A DNA stretch of 64,000 nucleotides from an uncultured delta proteobacterium (GTDB lineage: Bacteria > Desulfobacterota > Binatia > UBA9968): NCBI GenBank assembly GCA_963737905.1, contig CAVTUQ010000019.1:136837-200836 (forward strand), given 5' to 3'. Each line of letters opens with the position of its first letter. Positions within the stretch are counted from its first letter, which is position 1. Positions 16,013 to 61,812 of the stretch are shown here, piece after piece. The notes under the pieces were generated by a model that was given only the letters and a program-made list of their open reading frames with translations, ran no database searches and had not been told where the DNA came from. The translations under genes were made by a program, and so were the position numbers.

Positions 16013-16723
16013 ATGGAGAAAAACAAATACCTAGCCATCAGCACGCTTGGTTTTTTCCTGACGGGTTGTGCGGGGATGACTAAGTGGCAAGCTGCAACAG
16101 TGGGTGCTATCACCTGTGGAGCGGCCGGAGCAGCGGGTGGAGGAGTGGCCGCAAACAATGGTGTGGAAGGTCATAAGAGAAACATAGGCGCTGGGGTGGC
16201 GATCGGCATGACGACCGGCGCTTTGCTTTGCGGCGGTCTGGGGTACTTGCTAGCGCAGGAGCCCAAACCTAAGCCACCACCGCCACCGCCGCCACCACCG
16301 CCACCGCCACCACCACCGCCGCCACCACCGCCACCAAAACCAAAGCCGCCACCGCCGCCACCGCCGCCACCGGCGCCGAAGGTCGAGCGGACGATCATCC
16401 TGGATGACGTGTTGTTCGATTTTGACAAGAGCACGATCAAGCCTGAAGCGGCGAAGATTCTCGATCGGCTGGTAGCGTTCATGAACGAGAACAAAGATAA
16501 GAAAGTCGCTTTATCGGGTTTCACGGACAGCATCGGGACGGAGGCCTACAATTTGAAGCTATCCGATCGACGCTGGATGTCGGTTAGGGATTATGTGGTG
16601 AAACATGGTGTGGAGGGCGGCCGGGTCTCGGGTCAGGGATTCGGAGAATCCAAACCGATCGCTGACAACAAGACTGCGGAGGGCCGTAGCAAGAACCGCA
16701 GGGTCGAAATAAAAGTGGACTAG
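16013..16723 (+). CDS. OmpA-family lipoprotein with glycine-zipper region and poly-proline linker
   Basis: Lipobox FFLTGC, GxxxG-rich segment, about 40-aa Pro/Lys linker, and a C-terminal OmpA_C domain (GFTDSIGTEAYNLKLSDRR...NRRVEIKV). Confidence 0.85.
   Translation: MEKNKYLAISTLGFFLTGCAGMTKWQAATVGAITCGAAGAAGGGVAANNGVEGHKRNIGAGVAIGMTTGALLCGGLGYLLAQEPKPKPPPPPPPPPPPPPPPPPPPPPKPKPPPPPPPPPAPKVERTIILDDVLFDFDKSTIKPEAAKILDRLVAFMNENKDKKVALSGFTDSIGTEAYNLKLSDRRWMSVRDYVVKHGVEGGRVSGQGFGESKPIADNKTAEGRSKNRRVEIKVD
16259..16378 (+). repeat. low-complexity CCACCGCCG-type tract encoding PKPKP(21)KPKP(9)
   Basis: Direct reading of nt 16259-16378. There are runs of 21 and 9 consecutive Pro codons. Confidence 0.95.
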
Positions 16724-17262: not shown

Positions 17263-18594
17263 ATGCGCTCTTTGCAACAGCAACGGCAAGACGCACGCAG
17301 CATATTTGAAGCGGGCCTCGAAGCGTCCGACCCCATGGTGTTGATACGAAGGGGTGTGCGAGTGGACGGGCAGATTCTTCGCGCCGGCGAACGTCTTTAC
17401 GATTTGGCAACCTACGGTCATCTCTTTGTGGTCGGCGCGGGCAAGGCGACAGCGAAAATGGCTCTCGCCGTCGAAGATCTGTTGGGGGAAAGGATTAGCG
17501 GAGGAATCGTCATTGTCAAGCGAGGACATACCGTTCCGCTGAGGAAACTAGAGGTTGTCGAAGCCGCCCACCCGCTCCCGGATCAAGCAGGAGTTGACGC
17601 TACTGAGACCATTATCGGGTTGCTGAGACGGGCTCAAAAAACGGATTTCATTCTTTGTCTCATTTCCGGGGGCGCGTCTGCGCTGCTGTCGTCTCCCGCG
17701 ATGAGTCTAAGCTTGCACGATAAGCAACAAACCACGCAGGCGTTTCTGAACTGTGGTGCGAGGATTCAAGAAATCAACGCGATCCGTAAGCATATTTCCA
17801 AAGTCAAAGGAGGTCGACTTGCGCAGCTGGCCCATCCTTCGACTGTTCTATCGCTGATTCTATCGGATGTGATCGACGACTCCATTGACTCCATTGGTTC
17901 GGGACCGACGGCTCCTGACTCGAGCACGTTTGCCGATTGTCTGTCTGCTATTGATCGCTATCGTGTTGGAGAAATGATTCCCGTCGCCGTGACCCGCTTG
18001 CTGAAAAAGGGAGCCGCAGGAGAAATCATAGAAACTCCCAAAGCGGGCGATCCAATCTTTCATAAAGTCCAAAATCTCATTGTCGGCGATAACCAGTTAG
18101 CCTTGTTAGCCGCCAAAGAAAAAGCCGAGACGTTGGGATATGACACGCGAGTTCTTTCGAGCTCGATTGAAGGCGAAGCGAGGGAGGTGGCGACCGAGCA
18201 CGCGGTTATGGCAAGAGATATCCTGTCGGATTCCAGTCGGATTCGCCGTCCCGCTTGTATTATTTCCGGTGGAGAGACGACGGTAACAATCCAAGGTGAT
18301 GGCTTGGGCGGCCGGAACCAAGAATTCGCGCTCGCGGCGGCCATCGAAATTGACGGGCTGGAGGGCGTTGTGGTTCTAAGTGGAGGCACGGACGGCACGG
18401 ACGGGCCGACGGATGCGGCGGGCGGAATCGTTGACGGGACAACGGTTCAGCGCGCACGGGACCAGGGACTCGATGCACGAGGGTATCTCAGAACAAACGA
18501 TTCGTACCCTTTTCTAAAGACCGTCGGCGATTTGCTCGTGACGGGACCGACACTGACAAACGTCATGGACCTCCGGATGGTCCTCATTGCCTGA
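17263..18594 (+). CDS. glycerate 2-kinase / hydroxypyruvate-reductase-like protein (DUF4147 + MOFRL)
   Basis: 443 aa with VVGAGKA, LISGGASALL and SGGETTV...GGRNQEFALAAA...GTDGTDGPTDAAG, typical of the MOFRL family. Confidence 0.8.
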   Translation: MRSLQQQRQDARSIFEAGLEASDPMVLIRRGVRVDGQILRAGERLYDLATYGHLFVVGAGKATAKMALAVEDLLGERISGGIVIVKRGHTVPLRKLEVVEAAHPLPDQAGVDATETIIGLLRRAQKTDFILCLISGGASALLSSPAMSLSLHDKQQTTQAFLNCGARIQEINAIRKHISKVKGGRLAQLAHPSTVLSLILSDVIDDSIDSIGSGPTAPDSSTFADCLSAIDRYRVGEMIPVAVTRLLKKGAAGEIIETPKAGDPIFHKVQNLIVGDNQLALLAAKEKAETLGYDTRVLSSSIEGEAREVATEHAVMARDILSDSSRIRRPACIISGGETTVTIQGDGLGGRNQEFALAAAIEIDGLEGVVVLSGGTDGTDGPTDAAGGIVDGTTVQRARDQGLDARGYLRTNDSYPFLKTVGDLLVTGPTLTNVMDLRMVLIA

Positions 18595-18750
18595 AGGCGA
18601 AAGCAGTCTTCTCCATTCGCCTCCTTCCCGCACCGTCATCCGTGCCCACCCGGGTAGTTGATTTCGTAAACCATCCGTGATTAAAGTTCTGGCTTTCGGA
18701 AGCATTTGTTTTGAACCCATAACATAACCGACGTCGGATGGAGTGAGGAA

Positions 18751-18966
18751 ATGATTGACGTCAGCTTGCGAGGAGTTCGCTGTCGGGCGGCCCAAGAAAT
18801 TCTCGATCTCGATGGAACCATTGGCGCTGCCACCGAGGGCACGATTGTCTATGAACTCGAGGGAGAAGGGGGACAACTGGTACACGTTCAGTGGGACAAT
18901 GGGACGAGCTCCCTTGTTTCCGCGGAGGAGATTGAGATCACCGACCGCGCCGTGATCTGGCAATAA
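18751..18966 (+). CDS. small DUF4314-like protein
   Basis: 71 aa with GTIGAATEGTIVYE...LVHVQWDNGTSSLVSAEEIEI, resembling the G..GT...V.WDNG signature. A GAGG-type RBS lies upstream. Confidence 0.4.
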   Translation: MIDVSLRGVRCRAAQEILDLDGTIGAATEGTIVYELEGEGGQLVHVQWDNGTSSLVSAEEIEITDRAVIWQ

Positions 18967-43236: not shown

Positions 43237-44436
43237 TCAACCCCGGTTGGTGTCGGCGGCTGCAGGAATTTTCTTGACGAAAAGTCTAAGGGTAGAGGGA
43301 TTGAGTTCCTGCAACGTCAATTCTTTGGGGTAGCGGATGTTCTGTTCTGAGATGTTGAAGGTTCGCCGGCCCATCTCCGCCATCGAAACGTCGATAGCAA
43401 CTCTTATTTTTCTTGCGTCAAAAAGATAGAAAGCTCGGCGCGGGCCGCTAAAAGTCGCATTGACGACAGGCGGCTCGATTTCTTCAACCCGTAGATCCGC
43501 AGGGAGATTCTCCACGCTCACCGGAATCCGGTAGCTGACTTGGACCGTTTTTGAACCCGGTACGAAGATGTACCAAAAGCCGATGGCTAAGGAGAGAGAG
43601 ATGGCCTTGGCGATCCAGTTCTCTCTGAAAAACTGCAGTGAGAGATTGCTATGCTGGGCGGAAGGGAATTTCGTCCGCAAAAAGCTATCGATCACGGCGC
43701 CCAGCTGCTGCAGATTCTCGACCTCTCGAAGCTGGCCGTCTCTGGCGACGGAGATGGTGCCTCGCTCCTCGGAAACCACGATGCACAAAGCATCCGTCAA
43801 CTCGGCCAGACCCAGGGCTGCGGAGTGTCGCGTGCCGACATTGGCGAGCTGTGTGAGATTCTTCGAAAGCGGCAGATGGGCAGCGAAACGGGTGATGCAG
43901 TCTTGCTCCACTAGAACGGCCCCGTCGTGACCCGGAGAATGAGGATCGAAGATGCTCCTCAGTAACGGTCCGCTGAGTTTTCCATCGAGAGGAATGCCCC
44001 CGGTGATGTGTCGCTCGAGCGGGTCGTTGCCACGGATCACAATCAGAGCGCCGACGTGTTCCTTGGCCAGATCCGACAACGTGCGCACCAGGGTATCTGA
44101 AGTGTGGGAGCCGAGGGCCGGGACTCGTTTTCGGGCCAGACTCCAAACGGCGATTCGTTCGAAGAACTGGCGCAGCTCCTCCTGAAAGATCACGACGATC
44201 ATGATTAGGAAAATAGCGAAGAAGCCCTGAAAAACCCACGCCGTCATTTGCAGGTCGAGGTAGCGAGCGATAATGTAAATGCCTCCCAGAATAAGGATGC
44301 CGCGAACGACGAAAGCGGCCCGCGTGCGGCGCGCCCAAACGATGGCCGTGTAGAACAGCACCGCCACGAAGATGATGTCAACGATCTCCGCAAAGGTGAT
44401 GGTCGGAAACGGATTGATGATAGCGCTGTCACCCAT
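43237..44436 (-). CDS. cdaA: membrane diadenylate cyclase (CdaA/DisA_N) fused to a C-terminal YbbR-like (CdaR-type) domain
   Basis: Three N-terminal TM helices. DAC motifs HDGAVLV and GTRHSAALGLAE. An extra TM helix, then a YbbR-like beta-rich segment VQVSYRIPVSVENLPADLRVEEIEPPVVNATFSG. Confidence 0.75.
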   Translation of the reverse strand: MGDSAIINPFPTITFAEIVDIIFVAVLFYTAIVWARRTRAAFVVRGILILGGIYIIARYLDLQMTAWVFQGFFAIFLIMIVVIFQEELRQFFERIAVWSLARKRVPALGSHTSDTLVRTLSDLAKEHVGALIVIRGNDPLERHITGGIPLDGKLSGPLLRSIFDPHSPGHDGAVLVEQDCITRFAAHLPLSKNLTQLANVGTRHSAALGLAELTDALCIVVSEERGTISVARDGQLREVENLQQLGAVIDSFLRTKFPSAQHSNLSLQFFRENWIAKAISLSLAIGFWYIFVPGSKTVQVSYRIPVSVENLPADLRVEEIEPPVVNATFSGPRRAFYLFDARKIRVAIDVSMAEMGRRTFNISEQNIRYPKELTLQELNPSTLRLFVKKIPAAADTNRG

Positions 44437-55461: not shown

Positions 55462-56025
55462 ATGACGAGACGTGCCCTGTTGCAGAGTGTGTTTGCATCC
55501 GCGATTTGGACCTTATTCAAGGATCTCGCTTTTGCGGCCCAGCCGCCATCAATGAAGGACATCGAGAATTTGCAGAAAAACTGGAAGGCGCTATTGGCTG
55601 ACGGGACCAAGTTGCCGTCGCCTTCCGATCCGCTCAAGCTGTCGAAAGAAGAATGGCGCAAGCGTCTGAACCCAACGCAATTCAATATCCTGCGCGAGGA
55701 AGGTACCGAGCCCCCCGGCACGAGCCCTCTGAACAACGAAAAGCGGCCCGGCGTATTCGTTTGCGTCGGCTGCAACCTGGCCCTTTTTACCTCCGATATG
55801 AAATACGAGAGCGGCACCGGCTGGCCGAGCTTCTTCACCACGATTCCGGGCGCCTTCGCCAACAAAACGGATTACAAACTGATTCTGCCGCGGAGCGAAT
55901 ACCACTGCATCCGTTGCGGCGGCCACCACGGCCATGTCTTCGACGACGGCCCGCCGCCGACGGGGAAGCGCTGGTGCAACAACGGCGTGGCTTTAAAATT
56001 TATCCCCAAAAGCGGCAGCGCATAA
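55462..56025 (+). CDS. msrB: peptide-methionine (R)-S-oxide reductase MsrB with twin-arginine signal peptide
   Basis: MTRRALLQSVFASAIWTLFKDLAFA (Tat-like). SelR domain with CVGC / CIRC zinc sites, GHVFDDGP and catalytic RWCNNG. Confidence 0.85.
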   Translation: MTRRALLQSVFASAIWTLFKDLAFAAQPPSMKDIENLQKNWKALLADGTKLPSPSDPLKLSKEEWRKRLNPTQFNILREEGTEPPGTSPLNNEKRPGVFVCVGCNLALFTSDMKYESGTGWPSFFTTIPGAFANKTDYKLILPRSEYHCIRCGGHHGHVFDDGPPPTGKRWCNNGVALKFIPKSGSA

Positions 56026-56074
56026 CCAGTAAGGATTGAGACGACTTCCGAGTCGTTTCAATCCGATGTTCAAG
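56020..56074 (+). repeat. attC-like site 0 (weakest): GCATAAC ... GTTCAAG
   Basis: Overlaps the msrB TAA stop. 14-bp stem GGATTGAGACGACT / AGTCGTTTCAATCC with one G:T (56033-64). Shares AACCA and TTGAGACG with sites 1 and 2. Confidence 0.4.
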
Positions 56075-56361
56075 AAGCCCGTGGTTGAGGCAGGCGGGAT
56101 CAATATAAGGGAAATGGTTGTGGTGGGCGGTTTGCGCCGAAGGAAGAGAAGGTTAAATTACACGGTGGACTTCGGCTCGCGGTAGAAATGGGCGCGGTAG
56201 AGTTTGCTCGGGTTTAGTTTTTTCTCCTTGAATTCCCACAACAAGAGAGACTCGGAACGATACCATCGGTAACGTGAGCGCACTTCGGCGCCTGCGCTCT
56301 GATTTCAAAGCAATACAGCAGAGACAAACCGCGAGACGATTATCAGGTTGAGCGAACTTTT

Positions 56362-57453
56362 TTATCCCGAGCGGCGCAGAATTTTGAACGGCGGCAGCAC
56401 CGAGCGTAGCTTCAGCAACCCGCCACAACTTGGGCAGGCAGTGCGTTTTGGAGGGTCGATCTCGGGGACCGGCAAATCGACAGCGAAACCGTAACTTAAT
56501 TCGATCAGGCCACGAATCCGATCGAGCGGGATCTTGCAGTTGGGATTCATAAAGCCGTAGTAGCGGATTTTCATGAAGCCAGTGGGCAGCACATGCTGCA
56601 AGAAGCGGCGGATGAACTCCATAACATCAAGAGCCAAGATTCTGGAGCGCTGGCTGTGAGGCTTGCGATAGCGAATCAGCACGGTGCGGTCCTGGACGCC
56701 AAGGATGCGCGAGTTGGAGATGGCGACTTTGAAGACGTAGGGAGCGAGGTATTTGAGGCAGGCCTCACTGGAGGAGACCGCTTGGCAGTTGACGTTCCAG
56801 GCGATTTGCCAGACATCGTTGGGAATTTGATCGAACAATTTTGCTTGTTTCATCAGATCGCGGAACTTGGCCCTAAAGATGATCGAGAGCGCTTTGACCG
56901 GCAGAAAGAAATCGATTCGGGAAGGATGCCAAGAGCCATCCAATGAACGCATAGCGCCACCCGAAACGATGTAGTGGATGTGGGGATGGTACTGAAGAGT
57001 TCGTCCCCAGGTGTGCAGCACACCGAAGAAGCCTGGGAGATCGGCACCGATGTGTTTGGGATCAGTGGCGAGCTTTTTGATCGCCGCAGAAGAGGACTTG
57101 AACAGAGCCGAGTAACCGAGGCGCTGGTGTTGGCGGATGAAGGAACGCAATTTTTCTGGAACGGTAAACGTGATCAGGAAGTGATGGCCTGGGAGTTGGC
57201 GCTGGATCTGGGTTTGGAGCCACTGTTGGGATTTGTTGTACTGGCAGGTGGGACAGTGGCGATTGCCACAGGAAACGAAGAACTGTTGCGGCTCAGCACA
57301 GCCCTCGCACTGATAGAAAGCGATCCCGCAAGCCTCGGTGCGACAAGCGATGATGGCATCGATGACTTTACGATGGCTGCTGGGCATGGTCGTAGCATAG
57401 CGTTGGAGATACTCGGGGCCGAAGGTGGAAAAGATTTCACGAATGGAGGTCAT
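56362..57453 (-). CDS. IS91-family Y2 (HUH rolling-circle) transposase
   Basis: N-terminal Zn-binding CEGC...CGNRHCPTCQ, HUH motif HPHIHYIV, and Y2 motif YLAPYVFKVAIS. Confidence 0.85.
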   Translation of the reverse strand: MTSIREIFSTFGPEYLQRYATTMPSSHRKVIDAIIACRTEACGIAFYQCEGCAEPQQFFVSCGNRHCPTCQYNKSQQWLQTQIQRQLPGHHFLITFTVPEKLRSFIRQHQRLGYSALFKSSSAAIKKLATDPKHIGADLPGFFGVLHTWGRTLQYHPHIHYIVSGGAMRSLDGSWHPSRIDFFLPVKALSIIFRAKFRDLMKQAKLFDQIPNDVWQIAWNVNCQAVSSSEACLKYLAPYVFKVAISNSRILGVQDRTVLIRYRKPHSQRSRILALDVMEFIRRFLQHVLPTGFMKIRYYGFMNPNCKIPLDRIRGLIELSYGFAVDLPVPEIDPPKRTACPSCGGLLKLRSVLPPFKILRRSG

Positions 57454-58324
57454 GATCGAGTCCCTCCATCACGTGATTGATCAACTGACAGGCATCTTCC
57501 TGACCCTTCTGGGTCAGGTGGAGATAGAGCATGGTGGTTTCGAGACGGGAGTGGCCCAGGTAGCGTTGGATGACGCGCAGGTTGACGCCGGCTTCGAGGA
57601 GATGGGTGGCGTAGGAGTGGCGCAGGGTGTGGACCGCAACGCCCTTTTTGTTCACGCCGGCGTCCCGCTTGGCTTGGCGAAAGGCGCTCTGGAGGGTGCT
57701 CTTGGCCATGGGTTGGGTAGCCTGATGGGCATCGGTTTTTTTGTGGCCGCGAGCGGGGAAAACAAGCCGAGGATGGCGATGAGTGAGCCAGTATTGGCGC
57801 AGCAGATGGAGTGTGGGCTGGGGCAGAGCGACGTAGCGGTCCTTGGCGCCCTTGCCGCGGTGGACATGGATCATCATGCGCTTACTGTCGATATCGGAGA
57901 CTTCGAGGTGGCGGGCTTCGTCAAGGCGCAGGCCGCAGGAGTAGACGGTGGAGAGAAAGACGTGGTGGGGAGAGTTTTTAACCTGGGCCAGAAGGCTTCG
58001 GACTTCTTCGACGCTTAAGACAGCGGGCAGGCGGTGTTCGTTCTGGGCGCGCAGAATCGACAGGATGTGCCAGTCGCGCGCTAGCACATGGACGTAGAAA
58101 AAACGAATACCGCAGTAGCAGATGCGCATCGTCTTGGGCGCCCAGCGGTTGACGTTTTTGCGATGCAGAAAGTATTCTTGGAGCTCGGGTTCGGAGACGA
58201 GATCGGGCGTTTTCTCGTAAAACTCAGAGAGCATCCGTACCGCGCGGGTATAGGCTTTCTGGGTGGGTTCTCCTTTCCCATTGAGTTGCAGGATGGCGAT
58301 CATCCGTGGATACCAATCGTTCAT
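57437..58324 (-). CDS. tyrosine recombinase (phage-integrase family), IS91-associated type
   Basis: R..HxxR..Y catalytic set (GLRLDEARHL, HTLRHSYATHLL, LGHSRLETTMLYLH). Its stop overlaps the transposase start by 17 nt. It lacks the long IntI-specific insertion. Confidence 0.8.
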   Translation of the reverse strand: MNDWYPRMIAILQLNGKGEPTQKAYTRAVRMLSEFYEKTPDLVSEPELQEYFLHRKNVNRWAPKTMRICYCGIRFFYVHVLARDWHILSILRAQNEHRLPAVLSVEEVRSLLAQVKNSPHHVFLSTVYSCGLRLDEARHLEVSDIDSKRMMIHVHRGKGAKDRYVALPQPTLHLLRQYWLTHRHPRLVFPARGHKKTDAHQATQPMAKSTLQSAFRQAKRDAGVNKKGVAVHTLRHSYATHLLEAGVNLRVIQRYLGHSRLETTMLYLHLTQKGQEDACQLINHVMEGLDHDLHS

Positions 58325-58425
58325 AAAGTTCTCCTTCCGAAATAAGATAGGAGAGCTTATCGAACAACGATGGTGGTGGGACAGGAACGAATGTCAGGGC
58401 GAATTAACTGCCGCGGAGCGGCTTA

Positions 58426-58485
58426 CTTGAACCATTGGGTTGAGACGGTCGCGGCAGACCGCGCCTCTCACCCACAACGTTAGAC
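58426..58485 (+). repeat. attC-like site 1: CTTGAAC ... GTTAGAC (60 bp)
   Basis: Arms CATTGGGTTGAGACGGTCGCGG / CCGCGCCTCTCACCCACAAC pair around the loop CAGA, with three single-base bulges on the left arm. Confidence 0.6.
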
Positions 58486-58616
58486 AGCCGAAAGTCAGGA
58501 GAGCGCCGATGATGGATCCGATCAGACGCAAAATCCTTCAAACAGGCGGCGCGGCAACGGTGATAATCGCAGCGCGGCGAGTGTTTGGTCAGCAAACTGC
58601 ACAAGGAGGAGCTGCA

Positions 58617-59372
58617 ATGTCGTTCTACAAAAAAGGCCCCGTTTGCATTCAATATGAGGAGGCCGGTTCTGGCTTCCCGTTGTTGCTCGTTCCTGGCGGG
58701 GGATTGAACTCGACGATCGCCGGCTTGAAACGCGGCGGGCCTTTCAATGCGATCGAAGAGTTCAAGGGAGAATACAGCTGCATCTTCTCGGACATGCGCA
58801 ACGCCAATGGCGGTCAGTCCTACGGCCCACTTGAGATCGATCGGCCGTGGGATGCCTATACCGATGACCATATCGGTGTGATGGATCATTTAGGAATAGA
58901 CAAGTTCATGGTCATGGGCTTCTGTATCGGCGGTCCGTTGATTTGGAACCTTCTGAAGCGGGCACCCGATCGCATCGTCGCAGCCGTGCTGGCACAGCCC
59001 AGCGGATTCCGCCCGGAGCTGCCCAACCACTCGTACGACAACAACATCAAGGGTTGGGGCCCCGAGCTGGTCAAGCGCCGGCCCGACATCACGATGGAGA
59101 TGGTCGACAAATTTCTAACCAAGATGTACCGCACCAACCCCGACTTCGTCTGGACTGTGACACGCGATTTCGTGCGCAATTGCCGGACGCCGGTGCTGAT
59201 CCTGCCGGATGATACCCCGCCGCATCCGTACGTCGTCGCCATGGAGGCCGCCATGCTTGCGCCGAAGGCAGAAGTGAGCATGTTCCCGTGGAAGGAGCCG
59301 AAGGAACGGATTCCCCTGGCGGTGCGCCAGATACGTTCCTTCCTCCGGGCGCACCGGCTCGCTTCTGTTTAG
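58617..59372 (+). CDS. alpha/beta-fold hydrolase
   Basis: Start moved to MSFYKKGPVCIQYEEAGSGFPLLLVPGGG behind AAGGAGGAG. Nucleophile-elbow-like MGFCIGG. The ORF-track start at 58440 lies inside the repeat. Confidence 0.7.
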   Translation: MSFYKKGPVCIQYEEAGSGFPLLLVPGGGLNSTIAGLKRGGPFNAIEEFKGEYSCIFSDMRNANGGQSYGPLEIDRPWDAYTDDHIGVMDHLGIDKFMVMGFCIGGPLIWNLLKRAPDRIVAAVLAQPSGFRPELPNHSYDNNIKGWGPELVKRRPDITMEMVDKFLTKMYRTNPDFVWTVTRDFVRNCRTPVLILPDDTPPHPYVVAMEAAMLAPKAEVSMFPWKEPKERIPLAVRQIRSFLRAHRLASV

Positions 59373-59435
59373 ACGGAGGCGTCAGTACCAGAAGGCCGTC
59401 GACGCCAGGTGACCGCATGAAACCTTTCTTACGCC

Positions 59436-59495
59436 GTCTAACCATTGGGTTGAGAATGACGCGGCAGAGCGCCCCTCTCATCCATGGCGTCAGAC
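59436..59495 (+). repeat. attC-like site 2: GTCTAAC ... GTCAGAC (60 bp)
   Basis: Same length as site 1, sharing AACCATTGGGTTGAGA, CGCGGCAGA and CCTCTCA in the same order. The arms pair with bulges. Confidence 0.6.
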
Positions 59496-59499
59496 GTCA

Positions 59500-59996
59500 G
59501 TCTCAGTCAACAGGTTACGGAGGTGGCTATGGAACCCAACTGCACACCGATGCTGATAAGTACCAGGCCGGAATGGGAGGCGCGTCACAAAAAAGCGAGG
59601 ACCTGTTGCAACTTGTGTATGGGATAACAGTGGAGGCTTGGAGTTAGCGGAAAGATTCTGGGACGCGGCTATTGCGGTTGATCCAGAAGCTAAACGAACT
59701 GGGGATAGCGTTATGGATCACCAAGTGCGCTTTCAGATTTGTGGACCGCCACTGGTTTTGCGAATGTTGAAACAAAGGCCCTGATTATTCCTATGGAGTT
59801 TACTTCCTTCGAGGATTTGTGGCGCATTGAGTCGAATGCCCAGGGACCGCCTAAACTTTATATCAGTACTCTCTCTGAGCATCGCCAACAGGCATTGAAG
59901 GAGCGACTACGCACGGATATTCTTGGTAATCGCCCTGATGGATCGATTATGCTTAGTGCCAAGGCTTGGGCAGTGCGCGGGGTGGTACCGGCATAG
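59500..59996 (+). pseudogene. 5'-truncated, multiply frameshifted class I SAM-methyltransferase remnant
   Basis: Three frames join to LHTDADKYQAGM | RRVTKKRGPVATCVWDNSGGLELAERFWDAAIAVDPEAKRTGD | YGSPSALSDLWTATGFANVE...FTSFEDLW...DGSIMLSAKAWAVRG, a recognisable MTase C-terminal half. Confidence 0.55.
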
Positions 59997-60032
59997 AATT
60001 TTTCCGCGGACTGGTTTTTCGCAAAACGGAGC

Positions 60033-60089
60033 GTCTAACTTGGCCTCAGACCGATCGCTTACAGCGCCGGCTGAGCGTGAACGTTGGCC
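60033..60089 (+). repeat. attC-like site 3: GTCTAAC ... GTTGGCC (57 bp)
   Basis: Canonical inverse core. Arms GCCTCAG / CTGAGC and CGCT / AGCG pair around TAC. Confidence 0.5.
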
Positions 60090-60111
60090 TTCAAATTACC
60101 GAAGTTTGCTT

Positions 60112-60828
60112 ATGAAAATATTTCTGTCGCATCGCAGCCGAGATAAGGCGTTGGTCCGTGAGTTTAGGGACCTACTGCCAAGGTTCTTAGACGCTTGGCT
60201 CGACGAGGAAAGGCTTTCGTGGGGCGATTCCTTCCCAGGAGAGCTGAAGTCGAGCATTCAGTCGGGGGTCGATTTCTTAATCATATTCCTGGACAGGGAG
60301 GCGCTTAGTTCGGCATGGGTGAAACAGGAACTCCAATGGGCAATCGAACGCGAAAAGGAATTGAAGAGGACGTTTATCCTGCCCATCCTGCTCGAAGAAG
60401 TTTCTCCTGAAAATCTGCCCACTGAGTTTTCCACGCGATTATACCTTCGACTGGACGATTTCAGCCGTGCGTCGGTTGAGGCATTGGCGACCAGAGCGAC
60501 ACTACAACTGTTTCGTTTGGTTGTCGAAAGTTTCTCAGCTGTCCAGCTCGAAATACCGCGTCGCGAATCGCTCAACGCAATCCGTGACGGGCTTAGTGCA
60601 GGGCAGGCTCGTCTGCTAGGGTATATAGTCCGACAATGCAGTGATGGCTCAGAGCTGACGCAACGCGAGATCGAGACTGCAATGGGACACGCCCATGGCT
60701 CAGCAGAACTCTTTTACCGACTGGAATCGCTGATCGCACAAGGTTTCCTATTGAAGCGGCGCATAGCGGCAGATGGACAGTTTTCATATCGACTAAGCAA
60801 GGACTTTGGGGAGTTACGAGAAGGCTAA
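60112..60828 (+). CDS. TIR-domain protein with C-terminal winged-helix (wHTH) domain
   Basis: Start moved to MKIFLSHRSRDKALV. TIR_2-like motifs FLSH.S.D, DFLIIFL, SSAWVKQELQWA (conserved Glu), FILPILL. C-terminal LTQREIETAM...LFYRLESLIAQGFLLKRR..GQFSYRLS. Confidence 0.7.
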   Translation: MKIFLSHRSRDKALVREFRDLLPRFLDAWLDEERLSWGDSFPGELKSSIQSGVDFLIIFLDREALSSAWVKQELQWAIEREKELKRTFILPILLEEVSPENLPTEFSTRLYLRLDDFSRASVEALATRATLQLFRLVVESFSAVQLEIPRRESLNAIRDGLSAGQARLLGYIVRQCSDGSELTQREIETAMGHAHGSAELFYRLESLIAQGFLLKRRIAADGQFSYRLSKDFGELREG

Positions 60829-60910
60829 CCAAGCGTTGGACCGAACGGTGAATAGCGGCGATCGTGATGGCAGCGATTTTTCGCGCCGCCGGTCAACTCG
60901 GCTGTTAAGC
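60823..60910 (+). repeat. attC-like site 4: GGCTAAC ... GTTAAGC (88 bp)
   Basis: Overlaps the TAA stop of the TIR gene. GTTG[G]ACCG pairs with CGGTCAAC (bulged G), and GCGGCG pairs with CGCCGC. Confidence 0.5.
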
Positions 60911-60970
60911 TGCCTGCACTATGCCACCTTGACACTTGTCAATTTCGTTCAGATACGCCAGATATGATCC

Positions 60971-61812
60971 ATGACAACCATCAACCAAAATCGCACGCGA
61001 ATGAACGACGCTCTTGATCCCTCATCTATCCTCCAAACCGCTTTCGGTTTTTGGCATTCCAAAGTCCTGCTCACGGCCGTCGAGTTCGGTGTGTTCACGA
61101 AACTCGCCGGTCGCCGTCTCACCGGCGCCACCCAGCGGCGCATCGGACGATTCGAGTTGGCGAACGGCGGTACGATCTTTCTCGACGAGGTTACCGAGTT
61201 GCCCATCGATACGCAGGTCAAGCTGTGCGCGTGCTGCAAGAAGGAGAGTTCGAACGAGTCGGAAGCAGCAGACGATCAAAGTCGATGTGCGCGCCATCGC
61301 CGCCACCAATCGAGCTCAATGAGGTTGTGAAGAACGGAACCTTTCGGTCGGATCTTTTTTACCGGCTCAACGTGTTTCCTCTGAGGGTGTCGGCGCTGCG
61401 CGAACGGAAAGATGATATTTCGCTCCTGGTCAATTTCTTTCTGAGCAAATTTGGCAAGAAATTGGGTAAAGAGGTGCGGGGTGTCTCTCAGAGATCGATG
61501 GATAGTTTGGTCAACTACGACTGGCCGGGAAACGTGCGTGAATTACAAAACATCATTGAGCGCGCGGTGGTGCTCGCCGCGGGTCCGATCGTCCAGATCG
61601 ACGACTCGATGATGCGCTCCGGTGAAGCGGCGCAGGAGTCGGCCCTCGATACGCTTGAGAATGCTGAACGCAATCACGTCCTGCGGGCGTTGTACGAAAC
61701 CCATTGGATTGTTCACGGCAAGAAGGGCGCGGCGGAGATCCTTGGGATCAACCCCAGTACCTTGCGATCGCGGATGGAGAAGCTTGGAATAAGGCGGCCA
61801 GCGCAATCGTAA
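60971..61812 (+). pseudogene. chimeric remnant: O-methyltransferase dimerisation-domain fragment fused to a 5'-truncated, frameshifted sigma-54 activator
   Basis: [33 protein letters not shown] (OMT N-terminus) runs at about 61130 into [20 protein letters not shown] (Walker B). At least 3 frame changes follow (61225-61320) before FRSDLFYRLNVFPL...WPGNVRELQN...HTH. Confidence 0.7.

Follow-up and report, generated by a model that had tools for sequence, protein, structure and literature searches.

A probable chromosomal integron cassette array without an integrase, invaded by an attC-targeting IS91/recombinase element, in an uncultured Binatia bacterium

RESULTS

Organization of the locus

The 64,000-nucleotide stretch of contig CAVTUQ010000019.1 analyzed here (the window), from the genome of an uncultured delta proteobacterium of the Binatia, holds a series of gene cassettes with attC-like sites between the chromosomal gene msrB and a decayed sigma-54 activator gene; within the first of these sites lies a 2.4-kb unit encoding a tyrosine recombinase (int) and an IS91-family transposase (tnp) (Table 1). 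On the evidence set out below, positions 56020 to 61119 very probably form a cluster of attC sites lacking integron integrases (CALIN), here a short cassette array of the chromosomal integron type, that was invaded and probably reshaped by an attC-targeting IS91/recombinase element. A preliminary description of the window had marked five imperfect attC-like hairpins, here numbered site 0 to site 4 from left to right; the sites and their end heptamers are confirmed at the same coordinates, and the cores RYYYAAC and GTTRRRY occur at all five with 0 to 2 mismatches. As also described, two sites hold the TAA stop codon of the preceding gene (msrB in GCATAAC, the TIR-domain gene in GGCTAAC). The five are not all array sites, because an inverted insertion sequence (IS) unit splits the first attC and site 0 is the end of that unit: there are four host attCs, spaced 0.6 to 1.0 kb once the 2.4-kb unit is discounted, and the supposed first cassette is the inverted IS91/recombinase element. 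At least two attCs thus lie less than 4 kb apart with no integrase gene (intI) within 4 kb, the arrangement by which a CALIN is recognized. The IntI protein of a complete integron was not found in the 64 kb, where tblastn with two true IntI proteins matches the IS recombinase only (32% identity). The proposal of an integron-type array with no IntI in view, either a CALIN or a remnant of a chromosomal integron, is upheld by the occurrence of its attC family beside IntI genes, by the mobility of its cassettes, and by the variability of its relatives.

Table 1. Features of the array, its borders, and the matches of covariance model R2 in the window (arrows in sequences mark the crossover position)
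Feature	Positions	Strand	Description	R2 match
msrB	55462..56025	+	Chromosomal left border of the array; Pfam SelR, 141 bits	
Site 0	56020..56074	-	attC-like terminal hairpin of the IS unit; reads CTTGAAC-ATC-stem-TTACTG-G↓TTATGC	14.1 bits, E 0.37 (minus strand only)
Mobile unit	56026..58431	-	2,406 bp; TTCAAG-int-tnp-290 nt-attC-like hairpin-G	
IS91-family (Y2 HUH) transposase gene	56362..57453	-	363 aa; NF033538, 361.6 bits (cutoff 125); Pfam Y2_Tnp, Zn_Tnp_IS91	
Xer/IntI-like tyrosine recombinase gene	57437..58324	-	295 aa; overlaps tnp by 17 nt	
Host attC1 (site 1)	58432..58485	+	First 6 nt of R'' box missing here	69.1 bits, E 8.9e-17 (58426-58485)
Cassette 2	58480..59489	+	1,010 bp; alpha/beta-hydrolase gene 58509-59372 (Pfam Abhydrolase_1) and attC2	
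attC2 (site 2)	59436..59495	+	Same family as attC1; R' is GTCAGAC	49.6 bits, E 3e-11
Cassette 3	59490..60083	+	594 bp, between attC2 and attC3; only an 85-aa open reading frame (ORF) with TTG start, 59739-59996	
attC3 (site 3)	60033..60089	+	GTCTAAC...GTTGGCC	12.6 bits, E 0.99; exact boundaries
Cassette 4	60084..60904	+	821 bp; TIR-domain gene 60112-60828 (Pfam TIR_2, 62 bits) and attC4	
attC4 (site 4)	60823..60910	+	88 nt; GGCTAAC...GTTAAGC	19.3 bits, E 0.012; exact boundaries
Truncated cassette 5	60905..61119	+	First ~50 codons of an O-methyltransferase gene (ATG 60971), no attC; Pfam Dimerisation domain, aa 16-50	
Sigma-54 activator pseudogene	61120..61812	+	C-terminal part, frameshifted; right border of the array	
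Match outside the array	43960..44032	-		12.9 bits, E 0.77

Structure and insertion site of the IS91/recombinase unit

Host attC1 is interrupted by the mobile unit at AA↓C of its R'' box, and the orientation of the unit is the reverse of that of the array. Deleting 56026-58431, which joins 56020-56025 (GCATAA) to 58432-58485 (CCATTGGGTTGAGA...), restores GCATAAC CATTGGGTTGAGA...GTTAGAC, an intact 60-nt member of the attC family described below, with a predicted fold of -15.8 kcal/mol (z -4.8); the R'' form GCATAAC also occurs in family members of three other loci (L021, L022, and L024). Only 56026-56074 of site 0 belongs to the unit, its GCATAA being chromosomal. The stem of site 0 is bulge-free (folding z-scores of -6.2 and -4.2), and the site is kept in every other copy of the unit, with divergence setting in right after GTT.

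The recombinase scores 168.8 bits, in two stretches, against the IntI model TIGR02249, below its cutoff of 265, and alignment with the IntI proteins of two other loci (L025 and L032) shows that 23 + 8 residues of the IntI-specific region are missing, in agreement with the earlier statement that the only recombinase here is without the IntI insertion (31 residues in all). The Y2 HUH transposase places the unit in the IS91 family, but the host GTTC/CTTG target of that family is absent. In classical IS91 the host supplies this target, next to the ori end; here the host targets are G↓TTA/G attC cores (GTTATGC, GTTAGAC, GTTAGGC, and others), and in the left GTTC the unit itself contributes the TTC. 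The junctions of the unit do not fit the classical IS91 rule.

Homologues of the transposase are numerous (7,119 at E ≤ 1e-50), and most of those listed are on contigs of 1 to 4 kb, chiefly of 2 to 3 kb. The longer copies (L038 to L041; 82 to 89% identical) share one common block with the window, which runs from 58432 down to 56019-56023 and in the orientation of the unit reads G↓TTCAAGTAAGCC..., int, tnp, about 290 nt, and CTTGAAC-ATC-GGATTGAAACGACT-CGGA-AGTCGTCTCAATCC-TTACTG-G↓TT. A metagenome scan with the hairpin core yielded 19 further copies with the ends kept and the flanks unique, and at least 18 insertions besides the one in the window, with distinct flanks, show the same end structure and the inverted orientation; a scan of viral contigs for the hairpin gave no match. 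All left ends are G↓TTCAAG, preceded in most copies by the bottom strand of an apparent host attC, and this partner attC varies between copies. Right ends that are not cut by a contig end consist of GTT plus four variable bases, mostly RRRY, followed by unique flank, and G↓TT is found at both junctions in all copies. With the covariance model R2 (see below), the hairpin scores on the unit's own strand in every copy in which it is complete, and a host attC is found in antisense to the unit in the window and in L038, L039, L040, L045, L047, L055, L056, and L058. The unit therefore has the geometry of a cassette, and its insertion is always at AA↓C of the host R'' core and always inverted; since it starts with TTCAAG and ends with CTTGAAC...hairpin...G, a circularized unit would rebuild a perfectly paired R box. 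IntI homologues are located about 0.3 to 1.2 kb beyond the right end of the unit in L039, L044, L045, and L047/L049. A second, more divergent pair of recombinase and IS91-transposase genes lies in the same array as the first in L040 (L040:1-1559), on the opposite strand, indicating that several such units can occupy one integron.

The attC family and its covariance models

Sites 1 and 2 are 60 nt each and, as had been noted, alike (82% identical over 56 nt). When 185,579 species genomes were scanned for the exact pattern common to both, it was present in 31 stretches (L005 to L035), in metagenome-assembled genomes (MAGs) labeled Binatia, "delta proteobacterium," Acidobacteriota, Verrucomicrobiota, Methylomirabilota, Chloroflexota, Bacteroidota, Sulfuricaulis, and Syntrophobacteraceae. 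The conserved stretch extends exactly from xxxTAAC to GTTRRRY, between unrelated flanks; in the proposed family structure 87% of cells pair, and 13 sequences have both positions of the R-box pair 2-59 changed. A covariance model of the site-1/2 family only (R1) detected same-strand arrays at cassette spacing in 15 of the 31 loci. In L025 and L032 the family stands directly downstream of true IntI genes (471 and 408 bits with TIGR02249, cutoff 265; e.g., the attCs at L025:4851-4910 and L032:2746-2805). The IntI genes beside this family are transcribed toward the cassettes (L025:5710-6768, minus strand; L032:1193-2113, plus strand; L039:5466-6248, minus strand). Types of attC are usually held to be lineage-specific. 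Near-identity over at least 25 specified bases is observed here in MAGs of at least eight phyla, a spread that binning errors could inflate.

The site-1/2 sequence was also considered as an IS end and rejected as such: among the 31 family loci, L012 alone has a recognizable int-tnp fragment, and the recombinase matches in L025 and L032 are IntI, not the IS recombinase. The fragment in L012 (L012:1503-2119) is a degenerate one, with the left end TTCAAGTAAGCCGCT and partial int and tnp, inside a same-strand attC array.

R1 was too family-specific and was superseded by R2, a covariance model built from 69 R1 matches in L005 to L035, with no window sequence, and searched with filters off. R2 puts all five sites among its top eight matches in the window, with the boundaries of the preliminary description reproduced exactly at each, and there is one comparable match in the other 59 kb (Table 1). 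This clustering of matches within 5 kb is far from chance. In the positive control, R2 detected class 1 attCs of aacA4 (32.8 bits), arr-3 (23.2), dfrA14 (16.0), and aac(6')-IIc (11.9) and missed several others; because class 1 attCs score 11.9 to 32.8 bits, the weak scores of sites 0, 3, and 4 lie in the range of proven attCs. A hand-made scan for RYYYAAC...GTTRRRY plus a hairpin gave 51 matches in the window, missed sites 0 and 1, and was dropped as unspecific. A long GCC/ACC-rich repeat run within an ORF at 16261-16388 (GCCACCACCGCC...) was a false positive of the naive hairpin scan only.

Unpaired bases confined to the R''-L'' arm mark the recombining bottom strand of an attC. Reading the sequence against the consensus structure, we found them confined to this arm at sites 1 to 4: in sites 1 and 2 the three unpaired columns all lie on the top-strand 5' arm; attC3 has two extra bases, its L'' GC[C]TCAG[A]CCG pairing with L' CGGCTGAGC; and attC4 has one, its L'' GTTG[G]ACCG pairing with L' CGGTCAAC. 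The pairing of arms with bulges, previously ascribed to all five sites, applies to these four and not to site 0, which has none.

Cassettes and their mobility

Cassettes 2 and 4 were both found elsewhere, with homology that breaks at or up to about 30 nt from the predicted boundaries. L061 has the hydrolase cassette between different attCs and beside a dnaE2-like gene, with 91% identity to the window over 58477-59443, a stretch bounded by R' of attC1 and R'' of attC2. The left homology edge of the cassette (58477) is at GTTAGAC, at most 3 nt from the predicted G↓TT, and its right edge is at R'' of attC2, not at the G↓TT core. When 59436-59443 is compared with L061:1701-1769, the ORF and the R'' core are kept and the remaining attC is of a different type, a pattern suggestive of R''-core crossovers between ordinary cassettes as well. 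A search for hydrolase homologues did not reach the far end of contig_63420.

An identical TIR protein is encoded in another context in L002 and L003, behind a monooxygenase gene, with homology over 60056-60890 (98%); in L002 the attC in front of the cassette is a different one (R2, 20 bits), again with GTTGGCC at its end. The TIR cassette's own attC in these two loci (L002:2105-2200 versus 60823-60910) diverges 20 nt before its end, is without the L' box, and has GGCTGAC as its R'' instead of the GGCTAAC of the window; it may be a rearranged or hybrid site. The C-terminal region of the TIR protein has a weak MarR-like match, and its matches to anti-phage families are weak only (PADLOC PDC-S66, 41 bits; ThsB, 19 bits; NCBIfam retron-TIR, 37 bits); the cassette may be a single-gene defense cassette. 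Cassette 3 has no recognizable intact gene and no Pfam or NCBIfam match. The array of the window as such is also present in other samples (L001, 98.7% identical, and L004).

The left border and the variable locus in close relatives

In three close relatives (L036, L062, and L063) msrB shows 93 to 97% nucleotide identity across the region, and the homology of the window with them ends at 56024-56026; the last codons and stop of msrB (GCATAA) now form the R'' box of the first attC of the array. No attC was found upstream of msrB. The window and L036 have msrB with GCATAAC in common, their homology ending at GCATAA↓C, and the heptamer in L062 and L063 is GCATAGC, without GTT on the other strand. 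In all three relatives a DUF1272 gene, absent from the window, follows msrB after four nucleotides, and the stop of this gene is followed by three different continuations, with some modules at shifted positions. A comparison with relatives, which had been suggested as a check, thus reveals differences module by module downstream of msrB-DUF1272. Shared modules (L063:8082-8662 versus L036:9795-10377; L062:8613-8668 versus L036:10189-10244) consist of an ORF for a 117-aa membrane protein and the junction element after it. They are not claimed as cassettes, because R2 is silent in L036 and L062 and the sites there were read by eye only.

L036 also carries an intI remnant 8.3 kb from msrB (17500-18440), in which the IntI-specific ALERKYPNAGKEWGWQWVFPA stretch is present and which stops short of the catalytic tyrosine. 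What reads, by eye only, as a BrnT-like toxin gene with a frameshift follows at 18500-18800; the L036 assembly is rich in frameshifts, some of which may be sequencing errors. A chromosomal integron, hypervariable in this lineage, is the probable ancestor of the array of the window.

Upstream of the array are the housekeeping genes lysS, an MFS transporter gene, a polyketide-cyclase-like gene, mscS, and msrB, and downstream of it the minus strand carries msrQ-like and msrP-like genes. Methionine-sulfoxide repair genes accordingly bracket the array, with msrB on the left and the msrQ/msrP-like genes on the right; exact-protein look-ups with MsrQ and MsrP gave no match. GC and skew profiles do not distinguish the array.

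DISCUSSION

Weighing of the interpretation and its alternatives

Several observations weigh against the interpretation of the locus as a CALIN with an embedded IS unit. The seed from which R2 descends included sites 1 and 2 of the window, sites 0 and 3 taken singly have E values of 0.4 to 1, and R2 searches of L036 and L062 found no attC. Bottom-strand folding, proposed as a check, bears out sites 0 and 1 (z -4.2 each), does so less for sites 2 and 3 (-1.6 and -1.8), and does not for site 4 (-0.9), which folds no better than shuffles; folding by itself is weak support for sites 2, 3, and 4, and it supports only part of the claim because z is strong only for sites 0 and 1. The deletion at msrB considered below is based on one breakpoint coincidence. 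Finally, the junction at 61120 has no GTT core, and the 98.7% identical contig L001 ends exactly there, so that misassembly is possible.

It is on this last point that an assembly chimera at about 61120, beyond which the array would continue in the real genome, has to be considered; we regard it as unlikely. Homology to sigma-54 activators begins at TGATQRR (about 61121), and the remnant has Pfam Sigma54_activat positions 78-167 over two frames, plus AAA_lid_14 and HTH_8. Several frameshifts in this fragment of an otherwise clean contig are to be expected of a real old pseudogene, and two sister contigs from a single assembly begin at nearly the same point on the left, which would fit a strain bubble closing at 61120. 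We therefore read 61120 as a real deletion junction, at which the methyltransferase cassette was cut and fused to a decayed sigma-54 activator gene. At least three frameshifts fall within about 150 nt of this remnant, and the neighboring genes are intact; a search with the fragment returned only partial genes on short contigs.

Nor do we expect the locus to be a working integron still, with an intact intI outside the window or with the IS recombinase shuffling the cassettes. The window covers 64 kb of a 247,583-bp source contig, the intI remnant of L036 lies 8 kb from msrB, and the IS recombinase is the closest protein to IntI here and, if it moves the unit, acts at attC cores. Against this, no IntI is encoded in the 55 kb upstream or the 3 kb downstream, the array lies between housekeeping genes and a deletion junction, and one of its cassettes is decayed and another truncated. 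In addition, the additional domain of IntI binds the extrahelical bases of attC, and the IS recombinase is without it.

The layout first proposed, in which all five sites are plus-strand attCs and the recombinase and transposase genes are the cargo of an ordinary long first cassette with site 1 as its attC, has become very improbable. In its favor are the perfect complementarity of GTTCAAG and CTTGAAC and the strength of site 1 as a plus-strand attC, and the ends of attCs are symmetric, so that the heptamers alone give no orientation. The heptamer matches are as described; however, the 7-of-7 match of unit 1 is the R-box complementarity of the IS unit's own ends and not that of site 1, and site 0 is the attC-like end of the unit. 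In independent copies the mobile block takes in site 0 and only the first 6 nt of site 1, and the attCs at its left end change from copy to copy. A single orientation on the plus strand holds for sites 1 to 4, but site 0, conserved as part of the IS unit, is matched by R1 (12.1 bits) and R2 on the minus strand only; likewise, the genes of the later units are on the plus strand, whereas both genes of unit 1 are on the minus strand. Site 0 was also rejected as msrB's own attC: L036 has msrB with GCATAAC and without the rest of the site. Hardly credible is the explanation of the sites as REP-like or terminator hairpins unrelated to integron recombination, since, although all the sites are GC-rich, imperfect hairpins at the ends of genes and an Rfam scan at gathering thresholds gave no match (meaning only that no described family reached threshold), a search for a dispersed REP-like repeat, as had been advised, found only two family copies in 64 kb, both within the array, the family spans many phyla in same-strand arrays at cassette spacing and beside IntI, the homology of mobile cassettes breaks at or near core sites, and the model also detects class 1 attCs.

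Proposed mechanism and significance

In the array interpretation, the host cassettes would have been moved by IntI recombining folded single-stranded attCs at G↓TT. The unit would have entered by a conservative, tyrosine-recombinase-type recombination between its own hairpin and the core presented by the top strand of the host attC, and because AA↓C is the position offered by that strand, the unit would always be inverted relative to the array. IntI uses attC top strands only rarely, yet at least nine independent insertions are all inverted, and for this reason we infer that the unit's own recombinase is the likeliest integrating enzyme; the HUH transposase may supply single-stranded circles or copies of the unit. 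At the left border, the unit end could have recombined with the pseudo-core GTTATGC at the msrB stop, at the cost of DUF1272 and the proximal end of the locus, perhaps including intI. This is the simplest account because the window is without DUF1272 and the homology with L036 ends at the crossover point of the unit, GCATAA↓C.

We tentatively suggest, at somewhat less than even odds, that the int-tnp unit is an integron parasite of a class not yet described, i.e., an IS91-family element turned into a self-mobilizing "anti-sense cassette," in which a recombinase without the domain for extrahelical bases joins a bulge-free hairpin to the R'' core of the host top strand and the HUH transposase might supply single-stranded circles. 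If this were true, such units may also remodel integrons, as by the fusion of the array to the msrB stop and the deletion of intI here, and they would be natural users of the "wrong" attC strand that could inform the evolution of strand choice and the loss of integrases by integrons. The array itself is of an ordinary, well-documented kind, a CALIN in an uncultured soil bacterium; its attC family, present in at least eight phyla, bears on how far cassettes travel, and the protein of its TIR cassette is of a kind found in anti-phage systems. The embedded element, which is abundant in metagenomes, is the more interesting result.

Comparison with known systems

The array resembles a CALIN, or decayed sedentary chromosomal integron in the IntegronFinder classification, in its same-strand attCs less than 4 kb apart, its promoter-less cassettes of 0.6 to 1 kb, the absence of a nearby intI, and its strain-variable cassette content with some decayed cassettes. 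It differs in that it abuts the stop codon of a housekeeping gene and is truncated by a deletion into a regulator gene, and in that its attC family is common to many phyla rather than lineage-specific. An "inverted integrase" layout is that of the Treponema denticola type; the intI genes of L025 and L032, and by inference that of L039, are likewise transcribed toward cassettes with the same attC family, but the window itself has no intI.

A full-text search of one literature library found no description of an IS91/recombinase element targeting attC. Known mobile elements that target attC are the IS1111-attC group of the IS110 family and the group IIC-attC introns. The unit shares with these its site and orientation specificity for attC and its abundance in environmental integrons, and it would add a third kind to the attC-specific mobile elements if inserted by its own recombinase. 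Those elements work with a DEDD transposase or with a ribozyme and reverse transcriptase, the unit with a Y2 HUH transposase and a tyrosine recombinase; also unlike them, the unit brings its own attC-like hairpin and targets the R'' box, and its junctions have cassette geometry, with G↓TT on both sides and an R box rebuilt on circularization. IS91-family ISs with an upstream tyrosine-recombinase ORF are represented in ISfinder by ISAzo26, ISMno23, ISWz1, and others; the nearest plasmid-borne relative is only 40% identical. The order of a recombinase ORF followed by an IS91-type transposase and the lack of a target duplication are common to these ISs and the unit, whereas here the host supplies only G↓TTRRRY of the attC core, and the unit brings the TTC.

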